A stretch of DNA of 64,000 nucleotides from a phage. The position numbers and the translations under genes are program-made. Location: the NCBI GenBank assembly GCA_033664045.1, contig GCA_033664045.1_3674.1. One strand, written 5' to 3'. Position 1 is the first letter of the stretch. Each line of letters starts with the position of its first letter. This document shows positions 9,624 to 33,575 of the stretch, one piece after another. Under the pieces are notes generated by a model. The model was given only the letters and a program-made list of their open reading frames with translations, was not told where the DNA came from and did no database searches.

Positions 9624-9974
9624 TCAGTAGATGTTTTGTTTAATCTCTATTCCAAACTTTTTAAACGAGTCAGCTGCAAGCATGAATTTACGAGCCGCTG
9701 ATGGATTAGAAGTATGCACGAAAATCTTCACGTTGTCAACTACAGGAGGCTTACCAAATACAAATTTTTCCTCCAACATAGATAGGCAATCGTACCCTTC
9801 GAATACCTCTCCAAGGTCGTTGTCCATATGCCACTCAGAAACGCGTCTGTAGAGCTTTTTATTATCGTTAATAAAATCCATAAACTCGGAGGAATTCTTT
9901 AGCCAAATAGCGTCTTGGAGCCCATAATTTGACGGATCTCTCAAGTCATCAAGCCACACAATCAACTTCTTCAT
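9624..9974 (-). CDS. small receiver-like (Rossmannoid) domain protein, function unknown
   Basis: Conserved-position pattern LIVWLDDLRD ... HMDNDLGE ... IFVHTSNP ... K is reminiscent of a CheY-like fold. Confidence 0.3.
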   Translation of the reverse strand: MKKLIVWLDDLRDPSNYGLQDAIWLKNSSEFMDFINDNKKLYRRVSEWHMDNDLGEVFEGYDCLSMLEEKFVFGKPPVVDNVKIFVHTSNPSAARKFMLAADSFKKFGIEIKQNIY

Positions 9975-10906
9975 TGCATATAGTCCCAGTTGTGGAAATA
10001 GTAATCAAGTATCTCACGGCGTTCCTGCTCCAGGAGACAGTTCCACACGTCTTCTGTGTAATTGCTACGAATGAAGTTTACCATGCCGTAAAACTCTTCG
10101 TCAACACGTTTAAATATATCATCACCCCAAATCTTCCAAGCTTTACTCCTCATTACGGCCTTCCGTGCCAGATAGTATGGAGACTTGATCTTCAGCTGCA
10201 GATCATAAGGGTAGTAAGGCTTACGAATCATATACCCTTCACCTCTTGTTTCTGCAGCTAATTCTTTTGCATAGCTGAACGGAATTTCACGCACAGTGTG
10301 AGGACGTTTTGCACCAAGGTATTTGGCAATCCCATCTAAAGCTGCTTCTGGTAGCATTATTCCAGAATCATTATATCTGCAACCTATCAAATATGCTCCA
10401 TGATCTTCCTGAACAATATGCGGATCTGAAGGGTGACAAATTTCAAACATGAATGTCATGTTTTCATTGCCCATAACCTTCTTGATAAGATCTAAATTAC
10501 CACATTGCTCCCGGATGGTTTCCTTTGCAAGGTTACAATATGGAGAATCAAGAGATCCGGTTGTTGAGAACAATAGTTCCCCTTTATGAGATGATACCAC
10601 ACCGAGGAATCCGTTCTTTTTCTCTACCGCCGTCACAAGCTTATTGTCAGGCAGGTTGGTGGAATTTTCTCCCAAGTTAAACACTTTTGTGAAGGGCCAT
10701 GCCACAACATTTCCTTCATTACCGACAACAATGCCTCGGCACTCCAGCAAACGAGGGGACAAATGCCATAAATTGTTGTAAAATACTTTTCTGGCATATT
10801 TATAGATCTTTAACCCGAGATCTGGGTGATATCTGCTGGTTACAAGACCTTTGTCAACTAGGTCGTCTGCATTAAAATACTTCATCATACGTTCCTCATT
10901 TGTCAT
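9971..10906 (-). CDS. ATP-dependent RNA ligase-like nucleotidyltransferase (Rnl2-like)
   Basis: Motif I VEKKNGF (KxNG), motif IV EGYMIRKP (T4 Rnl2 EGYVLKP), motif V LQLKIKSP; a separate DNA ligase exists at 6216-7499. Confidence 0.6.
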   Translation of the reverse strand: MTNEERMMKYFNADDLVDKGLVTSRYHPDLGLKIYKYARKVFYNNLWHLSPRLLECRGIVVGNEGNVVAWPFTKVFNLGENSTNLPDNKLVTAVEKKNGFLGVVSSHKGELLFSTTGSLDSPYCNLAKETIREQCGNLDLIKKVMGNENMTFMFEICHPSDPHIVQEDHGAYLIGCRYNDSGIMLPEAALDGIAKYLGAKRPHTVREIPFSYAKELAAETRGEGYMIRKPYYPYDLQLKIKSPYYLARKAVMRSKAWKIWGDDIFKRVDEEFYGMVNFIRSNYTEDVWNCLLEQERREILDYYFHNWDYMQ

Positions 10907-10949
10907 TTTGTCAGCCTATCCTGCCACACAAATAACCTAGTGTCAACAC

Positions 10950-10978
10950 TTGAAATTAACAAAACAGTTAGGTATACT
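10950..10978 (+). promoter_or_regulatory. sigma70-like promoter for kinase/phosphoesterase operon
   Basis: TTGAAA-17 nt-TATACT, about 28 nt upstream of the GGAGG RBS and ATG at 11007. Confidence 0.5.
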
Positions 10979-11006
10979 ATCATTGAAATTAAAACGGAGG
11001 ATTGCT

Positions 11007-11414
11007 ATGTCTAAAATGCTATATATCGTGCGTGGTCTACCAGGGTCTGGCAAATCAACACTGGCAAATGCGCTATCTTTAGAAGGCCTGTATCCCCATT
11101 TTGAGAACGACATGTTCTGGTACGACGATGACGGCAATTACAACTGGGATGCAAGTAAAGTAACACTTGCAGCAAAATGGTGCAAAGATAACGTAGAAGA
11201 TATGATGCGTATGGGATACGACCGTATCGTGGTAAGTAATACGTTTACAAAAGAAAAATATGTGCAAGAATATATTGACATGGCAATCAGCTATGGGTAT
11301 AGTTATACCGTAATCGTGGTTGAAAACCGCCACGGTAATAAAAGCATTCATGCTTCAGACGAGGTTGTGGATCGTATGGAACGCCAACTTAAAAACTGCA
11401 TCAAACTTAAATGA
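11007..11414 (+). CDS. P-loop polynucleotide 5'-kinase-like protein
   Basis: Walker A LYIVRGLPGSGKST at N-terminus, like T4 Pnk kinase domain (GCPGSGKST); start set at ATG 11007 after GGAGG. Confidence 0.55.
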   Translation: MSKMLYIVRGLPGSGKSTLANALSLEGLYPHFENDMFWYDDDGNYNWDASKVTLAAKWCKDNVEDMMRMGYDRIVVSNTFTKEKYVQEYIDMAISYGYSYTVIVVENRHGNKSIHASDEVVDRMERQLKNCIKLK

Positions 11415-11421
11415 GGAATGT

Positions 11422-11976
11422 ATGAAATACTTTGTAACAAGCGACACACACTTTCTCCACCAGCGGGTCATGGAGTTTGAGTCATGTCAAAAACACAGAT
11501 CTCAGTATGATCACAATCTTGACAGTATGAATGCTGGAATCATCGCCGAGTGGAACTCTGTTGTGTCACCTGCAGACACTGTGTTCCACTTGGGAGATAT
11601 TGCATGCACTAATGATAAGAATATCAACAAATTGCTCCCAGATATTCTAAATATGTTGAACGGACATATTATTCTTGTTCGTGGCAACCATGACACAAGG
11701 ACGACTGTCAGAATTATGAAAGAGTTCTATCATGAGGTTGTAGATTATTACGAGCTTCGCCACAACAAGAATTTGATCTGTATGAGCCATTACCAGTTTG
11801 CAAAGTGGAACAGAAAGCCTCACGGATCAGTCCAACTGTTCGGTCATGCTCACGGAACCACACAACAGTTGTTTGGCAGGCAGTTTGATGTCGGTTGGGA
11901 TGTATGGGGGAGACTCTTACCATTAGAAGAGGCATACCGTATTGCAATGAGTTTTGATATTGACAGCAGGGAGTAA
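11422..11976 (+). CDS. calcineurin-like metallophosphoesterase (candidate end-healing phosphatase)
   Basis: Motifs SDTHF, HLGDIA, VRGNHD, FGHAHG; start set at ATG 11422 after GAGGAA. Confidence 0.6.
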   Translation: MKYFVTSDTHFLHQRVMEFESCQKHRSQYDHNLDSMNAGIIAEWNSVVSPADTVFHLGDIACTNDKNINKLLPDILNMLNGHIILVRGNHDTRTTVRIMKEFYHEVVDYYELRHNKNLICMSHYQFAKWNRKPHGSVQLFGHAHGTTQQLFGRQFDVGWDVWGRLLPLEEAYRIAMSFDIDSRE

Positions 11977-12023
11977 TCCCTGCTATTTTAAAGAAAATTG
12001 CCACACAAGGAGAATCAGGAGAT

Positions 12024-12374
12024 ATGAAAGATGGGGATAAGCTGCTATATCTTAAAGTCCCCCTTGAAATACTATCTATGTCAAAAGTTTTGAATGACAC
12101 AACTGGGGAGGTTGTTGTTCTTGACTTGTATGACAAGATCGTATACTGCTACCTGCACAACTGGTATAAGCTTGGAGGAAATTCACGCTTTACTCCAAGC
12201 ACAAGGAAAATTGCAGCAGATGTTGGGATAAAGAAAACAAAAGCAGCAGCGTGCGTTAAAACTTTAGAATGTGCAGGAGTGGTTGAAATATCCACACAAG
12301 GGAGAGGTAAAAGATGCACATTTTCCAAAGTTTTGCCACCAGAAGAAGTTATTCGAATGTCAACAACTGGTTAG
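12024..12374 (+). CDS. putative winged-helix/HTH DNA-binding protein
   Basis: STRKIAADVGIKKTKAAACVKTLECAGVVE HTH-like segment; lies directly upstream of the palindromic repeat array. Confidence 0.35.
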   Translation: MKDGDKLLYLKVPLEILSMSKVLNDTTGEVVVLDLYDKIVYCYLHNWYKLGGNSRFTPSTRKIAADVGIKKTKAAACVKTLECAGVVEISTQGRGKRCTFSKVLPPEEVIRMSTTG

Positions 12375-12446
12375 ACCAGTAAAAACTTAAATATCTGTAC
12401 TATAAGGATTCGTATGTTTTATGTTCACTATGAAACAGAGGTTAGT

Positions 12447-12536
12447 AACTGTCCGTGATACGGACACTACTGTCCGTCACGCGGACACATCTGCCCGTAA
12501 TACGGACACTAACTGTCCGTGATACGGACACATAAA
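12447..12536. repeat. four phased copies of 15-bp palindrome GTCCGT-N3-ACGGAC
   Basis: Copies at 12451-12465, 12472-12486, 12493-12507 (GCCCGT variant), 12515-12529; spacing 21-22 bp. Confidence 0.85.
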
Positions 12537-12539
12537 GAA

Positions 12540-12645
12540 TATAACTAAAATAACTAAATAATAAAAAATAAAAGATCTAGTACTTATGGTACTAAGTACA
12601 TGTACTTAACTTATGTAGAATATACTAGATCCTAAGTACCATGTT
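12540..12645. repeat. AT-rich tract with nested inverted repeats
   Basis: GTACTTA-tggtac-TAAGTAC and AGATCTAGTA...TACTAGATC around 12574-12640, preceded by an A/T-rich run. Confidence 0.7.
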
Positions 12646-12664
12646 TTAAATTTATTACTTACTA

Positions 12665-12900
12665 TGGGTAGTGTCGGCCCTTCATTGGCACTCGCCTACG
12701 AGGGGCGAGATGCCGGGCCTCCCTAGTGCACACAATAACAGAGGTGCATACATGCAGGTCTGTTAACATGTGTGGGGAGCGAAGCGGTAGCGCAGGCCAA
12801 AGGCCGAGCACTAATGTGGGCCACCGACGAAAGCTTGTCAGCGCCGTAAGGAGTCGGTTGAGAGCCTCTCGCGCGAGTTTGGATAAAGTTTATGTGTGGA
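12665..12900 (+). other. GC-rich segment, candidate structured RNA or origin-associated element
   Basis: Local GC visibly higher than flanks; nested stems GGCCC...[GGCA-CTCGCC-tacgagg-GGCGAG-a-TGCC]...GGGCC, GGCC-aaa-GGCC, CTCGCGCGAG; the overlapping ORF 12726-12941 lacks an RBS. Confidence 0.25.
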
Positions 12901-13035
12901 AACTGATAATGAGGCCCCTAAATCGCTCCACAGTTATATAAACCATACCAAGTAATGCAATCGCACCAGTTTGATAGAAAAGCTCGTTACAAAGCGATAC
13001 AGTGAGTTTTTCTATAACTTGAAGAGGAGGCAGCT

Positions 13036-13614
13036 ATGAGTTCACGCAAAGATGACCGTGAAAAGATTGCAAAACGTTATCAGAATGAAGAACAGATGGA
13101 GAAAACTTTCAAGTGGAAGCCTGGTTTCCAGCGTAATCATTCTGACGCTCGTGATCGTAAGCATCCAGACAAGTGGCTAACCCCGCCAAATGATGACATG
13201 AAGGTTGGTGATGAGAAGGAGTTGTCACCGGGGAAAGATGGCAACTACATTCGCACTAAGGAAGCTAGTCCAAAGGATGACAGCTATCTTGTAGATAAGG
13301 TTCTTGCTAGTATTGATGTAGATGTTGATACTGTACGAAACACTTTCCTTGGTTGGTATCGCACAGGGTTTTTCGACATCAAGGCTATTCGTCGTGTTTG
13401 TGATATTAAAAAGTCTGCCTACGATGATGACTCTTTACATCGAACCCTAAGACAATATTCAGAGAGATACGGTCATCCAGTTATCACTCTTGACGATATT
13501 AACGAAGTTATGTATCATGTAGAGGTTGTTGCAGGTAGGTTCGGTGATGCATATCTCGGTATTCTTTCTGCAAAGGATGAGGTAATGTTAAATAAAATTT
13601 ACTATGAACGCTGA
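13036..13614 (+). CDS. hypothetical protein (192 aa, charged N-terminus)
   Basis: ORF with RBS GAGGAGG upstream. Confidence 0.5.
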   Translation: MSSRKDDREKIAKRYQNEEQMEKTFKWKPGFQRNHSDARDRKHPDKWLTPPNDDMKVGDEKELSPGKDGNYIRTKEASPKDDSYLVDKVLASIDVDVDTVRNTFLGWYRTGFFDIKAIRRVCDIKKSAYDDDSLHRTLRQYSERYGHPVITLDDINEVMYHVEVVAGRFGDAYLGILSAKDEVMLNKIYYER

Positions 13615-14132: not shown

Positions 14133-14421
14133 GGTTGTTTTCGTGTATCATGATGAATATCCAATTTAAAGATGAATTTGATGGCTTTATCTCCGGATGC
14201 TTTGAAACAGGGTTCGGAGAAGACTGAGTTCCCCTTAGAGGGCTTGATAGTGCACCACACTTAAAATGGTAGGGGCAGCCAGCACATGACGATGTGACCC
14301 CAGCCAACCTGTAACAAGGTCGAGCCGAAGCGCGGGTAATAGGTCTCTGGTAACCCACTTGTTGGGTCTTGCTGGTTCAGGACGCTGGACAAGTCGCAGG
14401 GAATACCACCCTGCGGCGAAC

Positions 14422-14450
14422 TTGACAATCAGTATTTGCTATGATAAAAT
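14422..14450 (+). promoter_or_regulatory. consensus sigma70 promoter
   Basis: TTGACA-17 nt-TAAAAT. Confidence 0.6.
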
Positions 14451-14478
14451 CCACCTATCACGTGATAATGGAGGAAAC

Positions 14479-14913: not shown

Positions 14914-14988
14914 GCCCTGTTAGCTTAGTGGATAAAGCAGCGGCCTTCTAAGCCGTTGACACTGGTTCGAGTCCAGTACGGGGTGCCA
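14914..14988 (+). tRNA. tRNA-Arg (anticodon TCT)
   Basis: Hand-folded cloverleaf: acceptor GCCCTGT/ACGGGGT with G-U pairs, anticodon loop CTTCTAA, T-loop TTCGAGT, encoded CCA. Ends approximate. Confidence 0.75.
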
Positions 14989-14992
14989 AATT

Positions 14993-15079
14993 GGGGAGTT
15001 ATCCCGTAGAGGTAGCGGTGTAGACTGTAAATCTATTGTCATTGCGACTCGGGTGGTTCGACTCCACCACTCCCCACCA
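14993..15079 (+). tRNA. tRNA-Tyr (anticodon GTA), class II with long variable arm
   Basis: Acceptor GGGGAGT/ACTCCCC, anticodon loop CTGTAAA, T-arm GGTTCGACTCC, encoded CCA; architecture parallels E. coli tRNA-Tyr. Confidence 0.8.
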
Positions 15080-15193
15080 AATTTATATTTTTAAATGTAT
15101 AAATCATACAGATAATGGCATTGATATTTATCGTCGTTTATACTAGTCACTAACTGCTCGAAAATCAGTGTCATTATCAGTATTGTTTATAAA

Positions 15194-15284
15194 AGAGGGT
15201 AGGGAGCAATGGTGCTCAAGCGGTCTTGAAAACCGTCCCGTTGAGGATGACTCGATGATGGTTCGATTCCATTACCCTCTGCCA
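15194..15284 (+). tRNA. tRNA-Ser (anticodon TGA), class II
   Basis: Acceptor AGAGGGT/ACCCTCT, anticodon stem-loop CGGTCTTGAAAACCG, long extra arm, T-arm GGTTCGATTCC, CCA. Confidence 0.75.
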
Positions 15285-15372
15285 TATTGTTGACCTTGTA
15301 ATTAAGCGAAAGCCGGAAGCAGAACCGGATTATCAAATGTTACAGTCGTCATCGCCGACTAGCAACATGGTC

Positions 15373-15481
15373 AACATACTGAGCTAGGTAAGCCCTTTGG
15401 CAAGGGCGAGGATTTTTAATCCTGAAAATAGACGAGGTAGTCGTTGAATACATAGGTGGTTCGATTCCACCGCCTAGCACC
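15373..15481 (+). tRNA. aberrant tRNA-like gene (about 107 nt), possible pseudo-tRNA
   Basis: Perfect acceptor GCTAGGT/GCCTAGC and T-arm GGTGGTTCGATTCCACC, but anticodon region AGGAT-TTTTA-ATCCT and a roughly 30-nt extra arm; CC but no encoded CCA. Confidence 0.35.
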
Positions 15482-15486
15482 TTTTT

Positions 15487-15562
15487 GCTGATGTAGCACA
15501 ATTGGTAATGCAATTGATTTGTAATCAATAGGTTGCAGGTTCAAGTCCTGCCATCAGCACCA
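15487..15562 (+). tRNA. tRNA-Thr (anticodon TGT)
   Basis: Acceptor GCTGATG/CATCAGC, anticodon stem-loop ATTGA-TTTGTAA-TCAAT, T-arm GCAGGTTCAAGTCCTGC, CCA. Confidence 0.8.
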
Positions 15563-15563
15563 A

Positions 15564-15638
15564 GGCCCTGTAGCTGGAAGGTTCAAGCAAGCGACTCATA
15601 ATCGCCAGACGGTGGTTCAATTCCACCCAGGGCCACCA
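15564..15638 (+). tRNA. tRNA-Met-type (anticodon CAT; elongator Met or Ile2 not resolved)
   Basis: Acceptor GGCCCTG/CAGGGCC fully paired, anticodon loop CTCATAA, T-arm GGTGGTTCAATTCCACC, CCA. Confidence 0.7.
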
Positions 15639-15649
15639 AATAATAAATA

Positions 15650-15726
15650 CTCCGCGTAGCTCAGCTTGGTAGAGCGCCTGATTTGGGATCAGGAGGTCGA
15701 GTGTTCGAATCACTCCGTGGAGACCA
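15650..15726 (+). tRNA. tRNA-Pro (anticodon TGG)
   Basis: Acceptor CTCCGCG/CGTGGAG, canonical D-arm GCTCAGCTTGGTAGAGC, anticodon stem-loop CCTGA-TTTGGGA-TCAGG, T-loop TTCGAAT, CCA. Confidence 0.85.
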
Positions 15727-16830: not shown

Positions 16831-17255
16831 TGTCTAAGATTTACGGACCGTGTTCTGAAAAGCAGAAGATGATCCTAGAAAACGATGCAGATATTTTGGT
16901 AATCGGCGGTGCCGCAGGGTCTGGCAAGTCGTTCCTCTTGCAGTTGATGCCACTTAAAATTATTGATGACCCCCACAGCTCTGTGGTTATGTTCCGAAGA
17001 ACAACCCCGCAGTTGGAAGGTGAGGGTGGACTATGGCCTAAAGCAGTAGCTATTTATAGTGATCTGCCTGAAAACATTAAGCCAAAGTTCAGAGAGAAGG
17101 ATCATAAGTTCATTTTTCCACGGTTTGATCCGAACACTGGTAAGTGGGATAGAAGCAAAAAGGGAGCTGTTGTAAAATACTGCCACATGGAGTATGTACA
17201 AGATAAGCTTAACCATCAGGGGCTTGAGTACACCATGGTTTGCTTCGATGAGGGT
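16830..17255 (+). CDS. terminase large subunit, exon 1 (ATPase N-terminus)
   Basis: Walker A LVIGGAAGSGKSF and Walker B MVCFDEG; frame stops at TAA 17256-17258, exactly where the intron begins. Confidence 0.8.
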
Positions 17256-17574
17256 TAATTTGTAGCTCTCGTAAAACCTCCCTAATTGCGGGGAAATCTT
17301 TATTATTGACACCACCAACCTGTTATGGTAACATAATAGAGGCTTCGAAGAGAGATCGAAGGTATGGTAACAGTGTGTTAATTTAGATAATCCGCAGCGA
17401 AGCATCCGATAGGATGAACGTTCAACGACTAGTCGAGAGACGTAGAATCAAGCGATTCGAAACGGGAGGGTAAGCGGTTGTTGTCGCTTATAAGATATAG
17501 TCTGGTCTGCATGGAGACATGCAGCTGCCTGAAAATGGCGGGGCAAGACTAGCGACCTTGCCTGAACATAAACG
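17256..17574 (+). mobile_element. group I self-splicing intron (no ORF)
   Basis: Core elements P AATTGCGGGGAAA (17284-17296), Q AATCCGCAGC (17389-17398), R GTTCAACGACTAGTC (17420-17434), S AAGATATAGTCT (17492-17503); P1 exon GAGGGU (17250-17255) pairs with GCUCUC (17265-17270) including U.G at splice site; ends with G17574. Confidence 0.75.
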
Positions 17575-25909: not shown

Positions 25910-26368
25910 ATGCTAAAGGTTAAATGTCAAACAAGGTTCAACCTAAAGCGTTTAGATCGCTTCTACAAAGAACTTGTGAGACTTGAAAGTAAAACAATAA
26001 CCTACGGCTTTTATGACGAACCTCACCCGTCAGGCTTAAATATGGCAACATTGGCAGCCATTCACAACTTCGGTTGGAACGGGCTGCCTGTTCGCAATTT
26101 CATGGAGACAGCCTTTGCATTTCACAGCACTCAACTGCAGACCTTGACAGAAAAATTGTTGAGAGCTATGGCCAGGGGATCAAGTGCAGAGGCTATTCTT
26201 AAGCAGATGGGGGACACAGGGGCCAAAGCTATCCAGTTTGTTATTGAGGCTGGACAGTTTAGTAATCCTACTGTTAGTGAGCAGTGGGCACAAGAAAAGG
26301 GCTTCAACGAGGCTATGCGGCATTACGATGTGCTGCTTGAATCTGCAACCTTTAAAATCGGACAGTAA
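25910..26368 (+). CDS. hypothetical virion assembly protein
   Basis: ATG 25910 after GAGGG and promoter; head-tail connector neighbourhood. Confidence 0.5.
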   Translation: MLKVKCQTRFNLKRLDRFYKELVRLESKTITYGFYDEPHPSGLNMATLAAIHNFGWNGLPVRNFMETAFAFHSTQLQTLTEKLLRAMARGSSAEAILKQMGDTGAKAIQFVIEAGQFSNPTVSEQWAQEKGFNEAMRHYDVLLESATFKIGQ

Positions 26369-30244: not shown

Positions 30245-32584
30245 ATGGCTACAAACAAAATAGTTGCCACAACAGTCAACAAGATTGGCTTTGAGATAGA
30301 GAACTCCTCCTACAAAAAAGCTGTAGAGAAAATTCGCAGTATTGGGAGGGAGTTCAGGAAACTGGGCGAGGATTTTAACTCAGCCAACCCCATGAGTAGA
30401 TGGCAGGCGGTAGCTGTTAAAACCCAGCAGACAATGCAGCGGGTTGCCAGACAGCAATCTCAGGCAAATGCTAAGCTGCACAGGGAGAGTGTAGCACAGG
30501 CCAAGAAAGAGGCTGCAGTAAGGGCTGCAATAGAACGTAGGGAGAATGCGAGACGTAAACAAGCTGTAGGTAATCTTACCGCTAAAAATCCAGAAATGGC
30601 TAGGATGCGTAAGTTCTACCAGCAGCAAGCTAAAGAGGCCAAAAAGGCTGCCAAATCTGCACCAGTGTCTTACGGTGGTTATAAGGCACCTAAGGCAAGA
30701 GTTCTGGCTAATGCCAAATCTTTCAAATATATCCCCGGTAACCCTAATATGGGTGGTGTGGCTTCCGACCCTAACCTTGTGAAAGCTCAGACAGCTGCTA
30801 TGAATCGTTATCATAGACAGCTAAGAAGAGACAGTAAAGCTGGTATGGATAATAAGCTTATGTCTGATCGTGAGGCAAGGAGAACCCACCTCTACAACTC
30901 TGCGATAAGACTTTCTGCCAAGTATGGAGCCGGATTCCGTGGAAGCTTGCCAGGATACTCAGAGTTAGAGTCCAGATTTGCTCGCGGGGAGATGAAAAAG
31001 TCAACCTTTAACGCCCACCTGTCAGCTCTGCAGTCCGGATTTAAAAGCGCCACCAGCCAAACGCTTACACTGGGTGATGCCATGAGAGACTTACGTAGAT
31101 CTGTTATTAATGCAACAGCTGCGTATACGGCTTTCTCTGGATTTACTGCTGTGAACAGATCTGGTCACATGATGGAGGGGGCAAGTGCTGCTCTTACTGC
31201 TGTTACTGGAGATCCAAACAAAGCCAACAGTGAGGTTGCGTTTGTCCAGCAAGAGGCTATGCGTCTTGGTTTTGATCTCAAATCTGGTCTTCAAGGTTAC
31301 GCCCAGATGGCGGTAAACGCCAAAAACCAGATGACAAATCAAGAGGTGCACGAGCTATTCTCTGCATACTCACAGTATGCTGCTGCTTACGGTGCCGATG
31401 AGGTAAAATACCAGCGTGGTATCATGGCAATCCAGCAAATGCTTGGTAAAGGACAGGTAATGTCCGAAGAACTGAAGCAACAACTTGCTGAAGCATTGCC
31501 TGGTGCATATGAACCTTTTATCAAGGCCACCAAAGAGGCTTTTGGTCTTTCTGAACTATCCATGGATCAGTTCATGGACATGATGAAGAAAGGTGAGGTT
31601 AAGACAGCCAAGATCATGAAGTATGTGGCTAAGTACATGAACGAGGCATCTGCAGCTGGTTATGAAAGAATGCAGAAGTCTAACGTACTGGCAGAAAACA
31701 GACTGAAAACCTTCATCGAACTGTCTCGTCAGAAACTATTCACCCGTTGGGCTGATGAACTAACAGAGTTCTATTATACACTGATTCGCACTGGTGAGAC
31801 TTTGCAATTTGTGTGGGATGCCTCTGGTGATTTTGTTAGCGGTTTTGTGAGAGGTCTCAACTGGGTAGTTGGTGAACTAAACAATACCATAGTCAAGATC
31901 CGCATGTTTTTCCTTGAATGGGGGATTAAATGGGGATTCATAACAGCTAAGACGAAGGAATATTCTGAAGAGCTTAATGACACCTTTAGCTATGCTAAAT
32001 GGGCAGGGTTTGCTGCTGCCATCATGCTGGTAGTGAACGCCCTGACAAAAGGTTTTGTCATGGCATCTATGCTTGTAAAAACCTTCAAATTCCTTAGTTC
32101 TATAAGAGGTGCAGCTGGAGCAGCAGGTGCAGGTGCAGCTACCACAGAAGGATCTGGTGGTGGTGCGGCAGGAAAAGGGGGAGGTGGCCTCAAGACACCT
32201 GGTGGTAAAGTTGGCCTGCTTGGTAAGCTTGGTATTATCGGTACAATATTAAGCGCCGGGGAGTTATTTAATGACCGTTTCAACCCACTGAGTGAGAGAA
32301 ATCAGCAACTGGATACTATCAGTGATATGATTCGCAAAGATATCATATCTGGAGGTAACGGGTTTGTTGATCCTTTGGACACCTTACCGGGAGGGACTCT
32401 TCCGTTGCCAGGTGGCCCTGGTTTTGCTTCTCAATTAAGAACTATGGAAATGCTCCCTTTAGAGATTAGTGATGGTAAAATCACGATTTCAATAGATGAG
32501 GGTGAGTTTAGCAAAATACTTGATGCAAAACTTGAGTGGGAGAACAACAAGGATATTAACTTTATGTCAACAGATCTTTGGTAA
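30245..32584 (+). CDS. tail tape measure protein
   Basis: 779 aa, long alpha-helical basic N-terminus, central IMAIQQMLGKGQVMSEELKQQLAEALPGAYEPF motif, glycine-rich and hydrophobic C-terminal segments. Confidence 0.85.
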   Translation: MATNKIVATTVNKIGFEIENSSYKKAVEKIRSIGREFRKLGEDFNSANPMSRWQAVAVKTQQTMQRVARQQSQANAKLHRESVAQAKKEAAVRAAIERRENARRKQAVGNLTAKNPEMARMRKFYQQQAKEAKKAAKSAPVSYGGYKAPKARVLANAKSFKYIPGNPNMGGVASDPNLVKAQTAAMNRYHRQLRRDSKAGMDNKLMSDREARRTHLYNSAIRLSAKYGAGFRGSLPGYSELESRFARGEMKKSTFNAHLSALQSGFKSATSQTLTLGDAMRDLRRSVINATAAYTAFSGFTAVNRSGHMMEGASAALTAVTGDPNKANSEVAFVQQEAMRLGFDLKSGLQGYAQMAVNAKNQMTNQEVHELFSAYSQYAAAYGADEVKYQRGIMAIQQMLGKGQVMSEELKQQLAEALPGAYEPFIKATKEAFGLSELSMDQFMDMMKKGEVKTAKIMKYVAKYMNEASAAGYERMQKSNVLAENRLKTFIELSRQKLFTRWADELTEFYYTLIRTGETLQFVWDASGDFVSGFVRGLNWVVGELNNTIVKIRMFFLEWGIKWGFITAKTKEYSEELNDTFSYAKWAGFAAAIMLVVNALTKGFVMASMLVKTFKFLSSIRGAAGAAGAGAATTEGSGGGAAGKGGGGLKTPGGKVGLLGKLGIIGTILSAGELFNDRFNPLSERNQQLDTISDMIRKDIISGGNGFVDPLDTLPGGTLPLPGGPGFASQLRTMEMLPLEISDGKITISIDEGEFSKILDAKLEWENNKDINFMSTDLW

Positions 32585-32690: not shown

Positions 32691-33575
32691 ATGCCAAGCA
32701 ATATAGTTGATGAAAAAGACCTGTACAAGCCTCAAGAGGTTAAATCTCCAAAGGCTGAAAAGGCAGAGCAGCAAACTGAAAGCGATGTAAAGTACACTAT
32801 GTTTGTCAGTGGTCTTAACTATGGTGGTCGCAATACGGAGATGAAGGGTAAAAACTTTACTAACGATCTTGCCATCATCTTCGATCAGATTGAGAATTAC
32901 TCTTTCAAACATTCTGTTGATAAGACTGATTTTGCGGTGGAAGATAAATCTACCCTGTCAGACCACGCTGTAATTAAAGATGGTGTATTTTCTTTTACTG
33001 GTAGGGTAAATACATCACCACATATAATCTATGAGCAAAACTACATTGACAGGAATACTGACTCTAAAAACCCTGCAGCATCTATGCGACCGGGCGCTGC
33101 ACTGGAGGCTTTGACTGAGATTATCAATAAACGACAGTTGGTTTCTTTGGTTACCGAAGAGAGACTTCTTGAGAACTACATTATAACCAGCCTTTCTGCC
33201 AGCAAGTCTGTTGGTGAAGGTGCTGCAATGGTTTTTGATGTAGAACTTACAGAGTTCCGCACATTCTACTTGAACAAGGTAGTTAATGCAACTGTATACA
33301 GCAATCCTAAGAAAGTAGGCAAGACCCAACAAAAAGGTGCTGTCAACGACTGTAAGAATGGTAGTAACGTAGGTAACAAGAGGGACACAGGAGCATTCGC
33401 AGACACAGCATCCACAAATGCTGCAGAGGAGTGGCAGCCATACAAATCTATGATGTGGACAGATGAAAACGGTGTTACCCAATCGGCTGCGGATTGGTAT
33501 TATCAGGAATATGGAAGACCTTCTACCATAGTCCCATCTGAGCAGGGGAACTACAACAAAGTTAACGGGAAATAA
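32691..33575 (+). CDS. tail/baseplate protein, hypothetical
   Basis: ATG 32691 after GGAGAGG (listed ORF starts 32664); downstream of TMP. Confidence 0.45.
   Translation: MPSNIVDEKDLYKPQEVKSPKAEKAEQQTESDVKYTMFVSGLNYGGRNTEMKGKNFTNDLAIIFDQIENYSFKHSVDKTDFAVEDKSTLSDHAVIKDGVFSFTGRVNTSPHIIYEQNYIDRNTDSKNPAASMRPGAALEALTEIINKRQLVSLVTEERLLENYIITSLSASKSVGEGAAMVFDVELTEFRTFYLNKVVNATVYSNPKKVGKTQQKGAVNDCKNGSNVGNKRDTGAFADTASTNAAEEWQPYKSMMWTDENGVTQSAADWYYQEYGRPSTIVPSEQGNYNKVNGK

Follow-up and report, generated by a model that had tools for sequence, protein, structure and literature searches.

Phased palindromes, an AT-rich tract and a structured GC-rich module as a candidate replication origin of an rV5-like coliphage

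We analyzed a winged-helix (wHTH) protein gene and the non-coding DNA behind it in a stretch of phage DNA of 64,000 nucleotides (GenBank assembly GCA_033664045.1, contig GCA_033664045.1_3674.1), the whole of which is called the window below. The locus is better described as two modules: an exchangeable cassette, in which the wHTH gene is followed by four phased palindromes and an AT-rich tract, and a GC-rich module directly 3' of it. The best reading of this arrangement is an origin resembling that of phage lambda combined with an accessory folded element, a reading that we hold tentatively and place a little short of an even chance. An earlier, sequence-only inspection of the window (the original prediction) had proposed an origin built of repeats, AT-rich tract and GC-rich segment beside a DNA-binding gene. 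The gene, the phased repeats and the AT-rich tract proved real and were strengthened by comparison with relatives; the GC-rich segment, in contrast, turned out to be a separate module outside the exchangeable cassette. On sequence evidence the window belongs to an rV5-like myovirus (genus Vequintavirus), a coliphage, as almost all of 119 phage records match the 1.2 kb around the locus at 90-99% identity and the gene order is that of rV5. The features of the cassette and its immediate surroundings are as follows.

11960-11989, plus strand: sigma-70-type promoter TTGACA-18-TATTTT with TG, before the wHTH gene; corresponds to the annotated rV5 'P76' (65693-65722)
12024-12374, plus strand: gene of a 116-amino-acid (aa) winged-helix DNA-binding protein, homologue of rV5 ORF79 and presumed binder of the palindromes
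12375-13035: non-coding region of 661 bp between the 116-aa helix-turn-helix (HTH) gene and a 192-aa gene
12399-12427, minus strand: promoter-like site facing left, TGAACA-17-TATAGT, next to the repeats on their left side and antisense to the wHTH gene
12450-12466, 12471-12487, 12492-12508 and 12514-12530: four 17-bp palindromes, TGTCCGT-N3-ACGGACA
12533-12664: AT-rich tract, candidate unwinding element, between the repeats and the GC-rich module

The repeats were as predicted: a search with GTCCGTNNNACGGAC recovered the four copies of GTCCGT-N3-ACGGAC, said to lie 21-22 bp apart downstream of an HTH-like gene, at 12451-12465, 12472-12486, 12493-12507 and 12515-12529 with 0, 1, 1 and 0 mismatches. 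The palindromes start 21, 21 and 22 bp apart (two helical turns), so that the array exceeds the at least three phased initiator-binding repeats looked for in an iteron origin. Allowing up to two mismatches, no other match was present in the 64 kb, where 1.03 scattered matches are expected. The proposed motif search of the complete rV5 genome also found the cluster to be unique, with three isolated sites elsewhere, each carrying 2 mismatches. When ten phages were aligned, the half-sites were essentially invariant, changes being confined to the 3-bp centers and two half-site positions, and the 25 bp directly upstream of the repeats varied freely. A gut-metagenome phage (L160) lacks exactly one 21-bp repeat unit. 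This loss of one whole unit suggests that the repeats behave as a binding-site array, not as chance palindromes. In Aya, the most divergent relative, the hexamers of the leftward site at 12399-12427 are either retained or improved (TGGACA / TATAAT), and we regard the site as a candidate leftward promoter.

Between the repeats and the GC-rich module, the predicted AT-rich tract with nested inverted repeats was recovered (inverted repeats I2, I19 and I20), and the 120 bp with the lowest GC content in the window (20%, at 12538) lie in it. It carries a tandem ATAACTAAA at 12541-12549 and 12550-12558, an imperfect palindrome of about 70 bp (12573-12642) and, on the minus strand at 12565-12577, an exact oriC-type 13-mer (GATCTTTTATTTT), the only exact match in the 64 kb. 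The tract is the most conserved segment of the locus, with a mean pairwise identity of 96.8% compared to 93.8% for the downstream gene, suggesting that its exact sequence, beyond its AT content, is under selection. AGATCT was considered as an origin mark and rejected, as it is enriched throughout the window (39 occurrences, 18 expected).

The exchangeable nature of the cassette is apparent from a relative of 137 kb from a metagenome (L016, recovered a second time as L159). This phage keeps the phosphoesterase gene on the left and, on the right, the GC-rich module (~85% identical) and the 192-aa gene. At the position of the wHTH gene it encodes a 143-aa wHTH protein that is 27% identical (E = 5e-7), its repeats differ in sequence (ATCTGATRCAAATATGTATC, at least three copies, spacings 21 and 33), and its AT tract is different and purine-rich. 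The joint swap in this relative and the loss of a whole unit in L160 suggest that gene, repeats and AT tract form one exchangeable cassette, and together they provide strong indirect support for binding of the repeats by the protein. From these comparisons we consider it probable that the 116-aa protein binds the four palindromes. Homology to L016 resumes exactly at the left boundary of the GC-rich module (GTGTCGGCCC...), the same point at which homology to the E. coli plasmid NZ_CP020521 starts, and this shared boundary points to a discrete module separate from the cassette.

Similar cassettes were found in other genera of the Vequintavirinae. At the divergent early junction of both PVP-SE1 and Mydo, a small wHTH gene stands beside palindromes particular to that phage and an AT-rich tract. 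The sites are of the ATTCCC-N5-GGGAAT type for PVP-SE1 gene 99 and form a GCTCAATTTGAGC palindrome for Mydo gp177, which is annotated 'replication initiation protein', and the two phages have the AT-rich core AAAACAATAAAACATAAGATCT in common. The L016 protein ends in an acidic ...ESGEDF tail that the window protein lacks; acidic tails with F as the last residue occur in two more distant relatives (P0011 and P0012), and the tail of a third (P0014) has W as its third-to-last residue. Acidic C-terminal tails of T7 gp2.5 and gp4 and of E. coli SSB bind replisome partners, and the L016 tail may be of the kind used in this way.

Most of the 119 Vequintavirus records encode the 116-aa protein itself at 98-100% identity, and its gene would be expressed early by the host RNA polymerase, judging from the sigma-70-type promoter at 11960-11989. 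The family is narrow. A word-based homologue search gave five proteins, all 86-98% identical and all from members of the genus, and an exhaustive HMMER search of 1.8 billion representatives gave ten matches at E <= 0.001, of which two were spurious; for three distant relatives the genomic context was uninformative. The protein falls in phrog_12838, labelled 'replication initiation protein' (E = 2.5e-80). Alone, it narrowly misses the curated Pfam thresholds, with 27.1 bits to DUF6945 (threshold 28) and 24.5 bits to HTH_36 (threshold 25); eight of nine family members match DUF6945 and seven of nine HTH_36, and the family profile matches PDB 4ro3, a protein of function unknown, over the whole domain (E = 6.8e-14, residues 7-104). 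In the structure model (predicted local distance difference test, pLDDT, 48) an N-terminal beta-hairpin is followed by helix-helix-helix-beta-beta. The PHROG matches of its relatives cover only the N-terminal part of longer profiles ('replication initiation protein', 'replication initiation O-like' and 'DnaD-like helicase loader'). An O-like PHROG is matched, weakly, by the relative from Mydo only and not significantly by the window protein, and P0008, a distant relative, scores 24 bits against DnaD_N, for which the cut-off is 27. The 'initiator' label thus derives from remote similarity, at the profile level, to the DNA-binding N-terminal part of longer initiators from phages and not from demonstrated membership of the family.

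The second module and its parts are as follows.

12668-12885, plus strand: GC-rich, non-coding, single-copy structured module of ~215 bp, directly 3' of the AT tract
12676-12719: module hairpin with inner stem 12687-12696 / 12704-12714
about 12720-12781: long module hairpin
12823-12858: module three-way junction with arms GCU[UGYC]AGC (12833-12842) and CC[GNAA]GG (12844-12851)
12912-12925, plus strand: motif GGCCCCTAAATCGC, kept between the phages and all plasmids (GNCCCCTAAATGGC)

The highest-GC 120 bp of the window lie in this module (60.8%, at 12687). Of the predicted GC-rich island of about 230 bp with several stems, the island held up, at 12665-12885; the stems are only moderately backed by folding energy (z = -2.3 on the plus strand and -3.8 on the minus strand), two of them by covariation. 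Coding potential was rejected for the island: the sole sizeable open reading frame (ORF) of the region (12726-12941) is shifted by a 1-nt indel between near-identical phages, in agreement with the prediction that the ~660 bp are non-coding. The 6-bp stem 12823-12828 / 12853-12858 is paired in 14 of 14 distinct sequences, with three of its six pairs changed on both sides (A-U/G-C, C-G/U-A and A-U/C-G) and a G-U intermediate, which pairs only on the plus strand, in two sequences. The 24 nt inside this stem contain just two variable positions across all phages and plasmids, both in loops, and the GUAA/GGAA variation in one arm preserves a GNRA loop. In the hairpin 12687-12714, GGCACUCGCC/GGCGAG(A)UGCC is replaced by GUCACUCUCC/GGAGAG(A)UGAC in plasmid NZ_CP020521, which amounts to two compensatory G-C to U-A exchanges. 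The covariation mostly reflects one phage/plasmid split and hence few independent events, and consensus folding of the whole module (RNAalifold) supported only the 6-bp stem, the other predicted helices being without covariation support. Rfam 15 gave no match at gathering thresholds and only chance-level ones (E > 1) in 12300-13100.

A covariance model detected one module copy per genome, and CCTAAATNGC occurs once in the window, within the motif at 12912-12925. Scanning viral contigs with GAAAGCTTGNCAGCGCCG gave one true rV5-like match, the rest being coding or chance. A scan with GTGTCGGCCCTTCA gave 116 matches, none of which, among those retrieved, extended past the pattern, and the same was true of all 16 matches in genome contigs. 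Metagenomes added three more rV5-like phages, two plasmid-like contigs and, again, the L016 contig. The TGTGTGGG and CCTAAAT motifs were not enriched. These wider searches suggest that the element is confined to this phage genus and its plasmids.

The plasmids are circular E. coli plasmids of 13.2-13.9 kb (NZ_CP020521.1, CP148565.1 and NZ_CP035869.1) in which the module core recurs; it is also present in NZ_CP043822.1, a trimer of 39.6 kb, and in two metagenome contigs. With one plasmid the phages share the 5' hairpin of the module besides the core. A divergent member, CP134895.1, keeps the flanking motifs and has a different hairpin between them, the core with its three-way junction being absent. 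In two plasmids (L151 and L149) Rfam gave no match at the shared module and only weak matches, below gathering scores, elsewhere. The plasmids encode major capsid, tape-measure, baseplate and HTH proteins, of which the baseplate and neighboring proteins are 48-55% identical to the products of 32820-33377 and 25985-26338 in the window. Judging by this gene content they may be satellites of rV5-like phages, or plasmids derived from such phages; we found no paper describing them. Several plasmid proteins are ~50% identical to rV5-like structural proteins, and the related genes of the window are 25985-26338, 30587-31540 and 32820-33377.

The plasmids have a non-coding region of 2.2-2.9 kb with the same order as the phage locus. 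In detail, NZ_CP020521 carries seven palindromic iterons CGGTAAATATTTCCG, adjacent copies of which are 23 bp apart, then an AT tract with GATC sites, GC hairpins that include the shared core, the motif CCCCTAAATGGC, and finally sigma-70-like promoters and genes. A 303-aa plasmid protein shows weak similarity to O-like initiator PHROGs. Three different initiator-like cassettes (those of the window, of L016 and of the plasmids) precede the same GC-rich module, suggesting that a specific cassette works with a generic folded element. It is possible, though less likely than not, that the module is a new folded cis-acting helper-recognition signal, common to the virulent rV5-like phages and the ~13-kb, autonomously replicating plasmids, that would capture the replisome or the terminase of the helper and would form the generic half of a two-part origin whose exchangeable half is the initiator and its iterons.

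If the locus is an origin, dimers of the 116-aa wHTH protein would sit on the four sites, all on one DNA face, and bend or wrap the DNA, and the bound array would destabilize the adjacent AT-rich tract. The T7-like replisome of the phage (gp4-type primase-helicase and Pol A) could then be loaded there. The plus strand of the GC-rich module would fold into hairpins with conserved loops and act in cis as an accessory element. It might serve as a replisome-loading or priming signal and also as the route by which the ~13-kb plasmids tap a helper phage; we propose this loading or priming role with low confidence.

The arrangement is best compared with ori-lambda, in which four phased inverted repeats bound by winged-helix dimers of O are followed by an AT tract and a GC-rich, palindromic sequence, and in which the initiator gene and its sites are exchanged as a module. 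Here too, four phased palindromes are followed by an AT-rich tract and then by GC-rich sequence, an initiator-like gene is adjacent, and protein and sites are exchanged together between related phages. The differences are that the sites lie downstream of the gene and not inside it, and that the GC-rich part is a structured module of ~215 bp and not a short palindrome. Unlike O, moreover, the window protein consists of a DNA-binding domain only, with no C-terminal domain for a loader of the P/DnaB type, and has no significant O-like PHROG match.

A second parallel is with the RepA_N initiators (RepA of pSK41/pTZ2162, and RepA of PLE, a satellite of ICP1), whose N-terminal DNA-binding domain is a winged-helix dimer of ~120 aa. 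Semi-palindromic iterons are typical of these initiators, and one is used by a phage satellite that depends on the replisome of its helper (PMC7145576); the polymerases of ICP1 and rV5 are related (PMC3606486). The window protein differs from RepA_N in having no significant sequence match and no C-terminal domain. For the GC-rich module, the proposed model resembles plasmids in which a folded single-strand priming signal stands beside iterons and an AT tract, namely RSF1010 with its single-strand initiation signals ssiA and ssiB, and R1 with its G4-type signal downstream of oriR. The module would likewise stand beside repeats and an AT tract; it has no sequence similarity to those signals and is larger, and the folding of one strand is suggested by the two G-U intermediates.

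Several observations weigh against an origin at this position. The protein is a bare wHTH of 116 aa, without an effector domain and without a domain or tail for recruiting a helicase or the replisome. Its structure model is poor (pLDDT as above), too low for a fold search. After 4ro3, the best matches of its family profile are to MarR/SlyA/CodY regulators (E = 4e-6 to 1e-3); RepA chains in PDB match only at E ~1.2 and are absent from the best 60 profile matches listed, and the window protein had no match to Pfam RepA_N. No DnaA boxes were found near the locus, and the match to the 13-mer GATCTTTTATTTT is not significant alone. The GC-rich module stays when the cassette is swapped, so its function may be tied to the downstream genes and not to an origin. 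In rV5 the minimum of the cumulative GC skew, at ~66 kb, is about 1 kb from the repeats (65.15-65.23 kb), which favors an origin here, but it coincides with divergent transcription, as noted by the authors of the rV5 genome paper (PMC3606486). The origin of rV5 was not definable (PMC3606486); likewise, we found no paper on an rV5-type origin or on transcript maps of the locus.

A second large ORF-free region of rV5 (NC_011041.1, 104013-106618; 2.6 kb) lies at the convergent end of two transcription units and near the cumulative GC-skew maximum. It could be an alternative place for the origin, the terminus or a pac site, which also counts against the locus described here. It contains no tandem repeats, and only TTCTTATAATAATTCTCAAATATC (24 nt) marginally matches the non-coding region of all the plasmids.

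The strongest competing explanation is that the locus is a transcriptional hub, which we judge possible and less probable than the origin. The wHTH protein would be a MarR/SlyA-like regulator, and the four sites would be operators controlling either read-through from the early promoters into the long morphogenesis-side transcription unit or the leftward promoter at 12427-12399. The GC-rich module would then be a structured leader or intercistronic RNA involved in processing, antitermination or translation control. The MarR/SlyA/CodY matches that follow 4ro3 speak for this, as do the recognition helix and wing, which resemble those of MarR/SlyA repressors (E = 4e-6 to PDB 3nrv), and palindromes are fitting sites for dimeric repressors. 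The sites of PVP-SE1 and Mydo are located in a divergent promoter region beside strong sigma-70 promoters. No terminator was predicted in 11900-13200, so transcripts from the promoter at 11960 could cross the whole region. In rV5 the locus is close to the 5' end of a long transcription unit, that of genes 27-81 (PMC3606486). The G-U intermediates and the conserved GNRA loop fit a plus-strand RNA, and the retention of the module with the downstream genes upon cassette swap fits as well.

However, no sigma-70-like promoter was found on the plus strand over the repeats or between them and gene 13036, and the repeats are ~500 bp from the next start codon. The window protein is also shorter than MarR and lacks its dimerization helices, and, unlike MarR/SlyA operators, the four sites are phased and stand beside a tract of 20% GC. 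The invariance of this 130-bp tract is left unexplained by regulation. In the plasmids the sigma-70-like promoters are downstream of the GC-rich module, which places it outside their leader. As plasmids, these molecules need an origin, and their iteron region, which is equivalent to the phage locus, is the obvious place for it.

It is improbable, we think, that the GC-rich module, alone or with the repeats, is a pac region of which the plasmids carry a copy for the terminase of the helper. The module core is the sole non-coding DNA common to the window and the plasmids, compared to ~50% protein-level similarity of the tail and baseplate genes. In satellites such as P4 with its helper P2 (cos), and in the S. 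aureus pathogenicity islands (SaPI) and other phage-inducible chromosomal islands (PICI; pac or cos), the cis element that satellite and helper most often have in common is the packaging site, and this precedent favors packaging. The intron-containing terminase gene (intron at 17246-17524) lies ~4 kb downstream on the same strand, and rV5-like phages are circularly permuted and package by a headful mechanism (PMC3606486; PMC13211470). Nevertheless, no pac position has been reported, the module is neither in nor beside a recognized small-terminase gene, and plasmid CP134895 keeps the flanking motifs without the three-way-junction hairpin. Compensatory changes and invariant loops suggest a folded single strand over duplex recognition, and the position of the module behind an iteron/AT cassette in three contexts would be pointless for a pac site.

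A partition (centromere-like) site bound by the wHTH protein, an alternative named in the original prediction, is very unlikely, since the resemblance to centromeres of the parC/ParR type, which are phased repeats bound by a small DNA-binding protein, is set against a virulent phage without a plasmid stage and a locus with no ParA/ParM-type ATPase gene beside it, its neighbors being a polynucleotide kinase and a phosphoesterase.

The genes around the locus are arranged as follows.

up to ~10906, minus strand: RNA ligase, a hypothetical gene and Sir2
10950-11414, plus strand: polynucleotide kinase-like ATPase
ending at 11976, plus strand: metallophosphoesterase
13036-13614, plus strand: gene of a 192-aa protein (phrog_12226, function unknown), the first gene downstream; given as context
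after 13614: small genes, then a tRNA cluster (14914-15726), then the terminase gene with a group I intron

The region had been placed at the switch from minus-strand to plus-strand genes, which is not the case: the switch is at ~10906-10950, about 1.5 kb upstream, and the flanking genes 12024-12374 and 13036-13614 are both on the plus strand. The product of 13036-13614 was found in Vequintavirus only, at 91-96% aa identity, below the conservation of the wHTH protein. Just 5' of the ribosome-binding site of this gene, AGCTCGTTACAAAGCGATACAG (12971-13003) is kept in all rV5-like phages examined, and it recurs as TAGCTCGTTACAGAGCTATACAG in a phi92-like phage (L010, 1484-1506), where it precedes the first rightward gene and forms a perfect hairpin of 6 bp; a role as an operator of translation or transcription is possible. 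On the left, 9971-11976 encodes an Rnl1-type RNA ligase, a P-loop polynucleotide-kinase-like ATPase and a metallophosphoesterase, which resemble the tRNA-repair set of T4-like phages and adjoin the phage's own tRNA cluster.

Within this cluster, ARAGORN predicts a 99-nt tRNA-like gene with a 4-base anticodon (atcc) at 15383-15481; GenBank records give either tRNA-OTHER or a 97-nt tRNA-Lys at this place, and the tRNA could contain an intron or be unusual in some other way. Another non-coding patch rich in GC (56-59%), at 14170-14420, lies just 5' of a strong sigma-70-like promoter, TTGACA...TATGAT (~14423-14452), and the gene after it encodes 112 aa with a basic N-terminus, MADTTKKRRRRGRP... 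(phrog_3330, function unknown). No likeness of this patch to the first GC-rich module was noticed, and it had no significant match in the plasmid comparisons. The group I intron that lies in the terminase large-subunit gene region (17246-17524) matches Rfam RF00028 with 84 bits; that of the rV5 terminase region has already been described (PMC3606486). Among the database records, 18 named as Campylobacter phages (MG0656xx; A116, C12, C14 and others) are unannotated and ~97% identical to rV5-like coliphages across the locus, and these are probably mislabelled or contaminant assemblies.

Phages of the rV5 type have been isolated widely and are components of cocktails for therapy and biocontrol. 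No replication origin has been located for them so far, and the locus is a precise candidate, with defined sites, protein and AT tract. In this candidate origin an initiator-like protein and its sites appear to swap as a unit while the folded GC-rich module stays fixed. The module and its occurrence in satellite-like plasmids are the most novel part of the analysis: the presence of the core in ~13-kb plasmids points to a satellite family of virulent coliphages, not described as such in the literature we found, and to a cis signal that would link helper and satellite. These elements may be useful for phage engineering, in minimal replicons and transducing particles, and for understanding the conflict between phages and satellites in E. 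coli.

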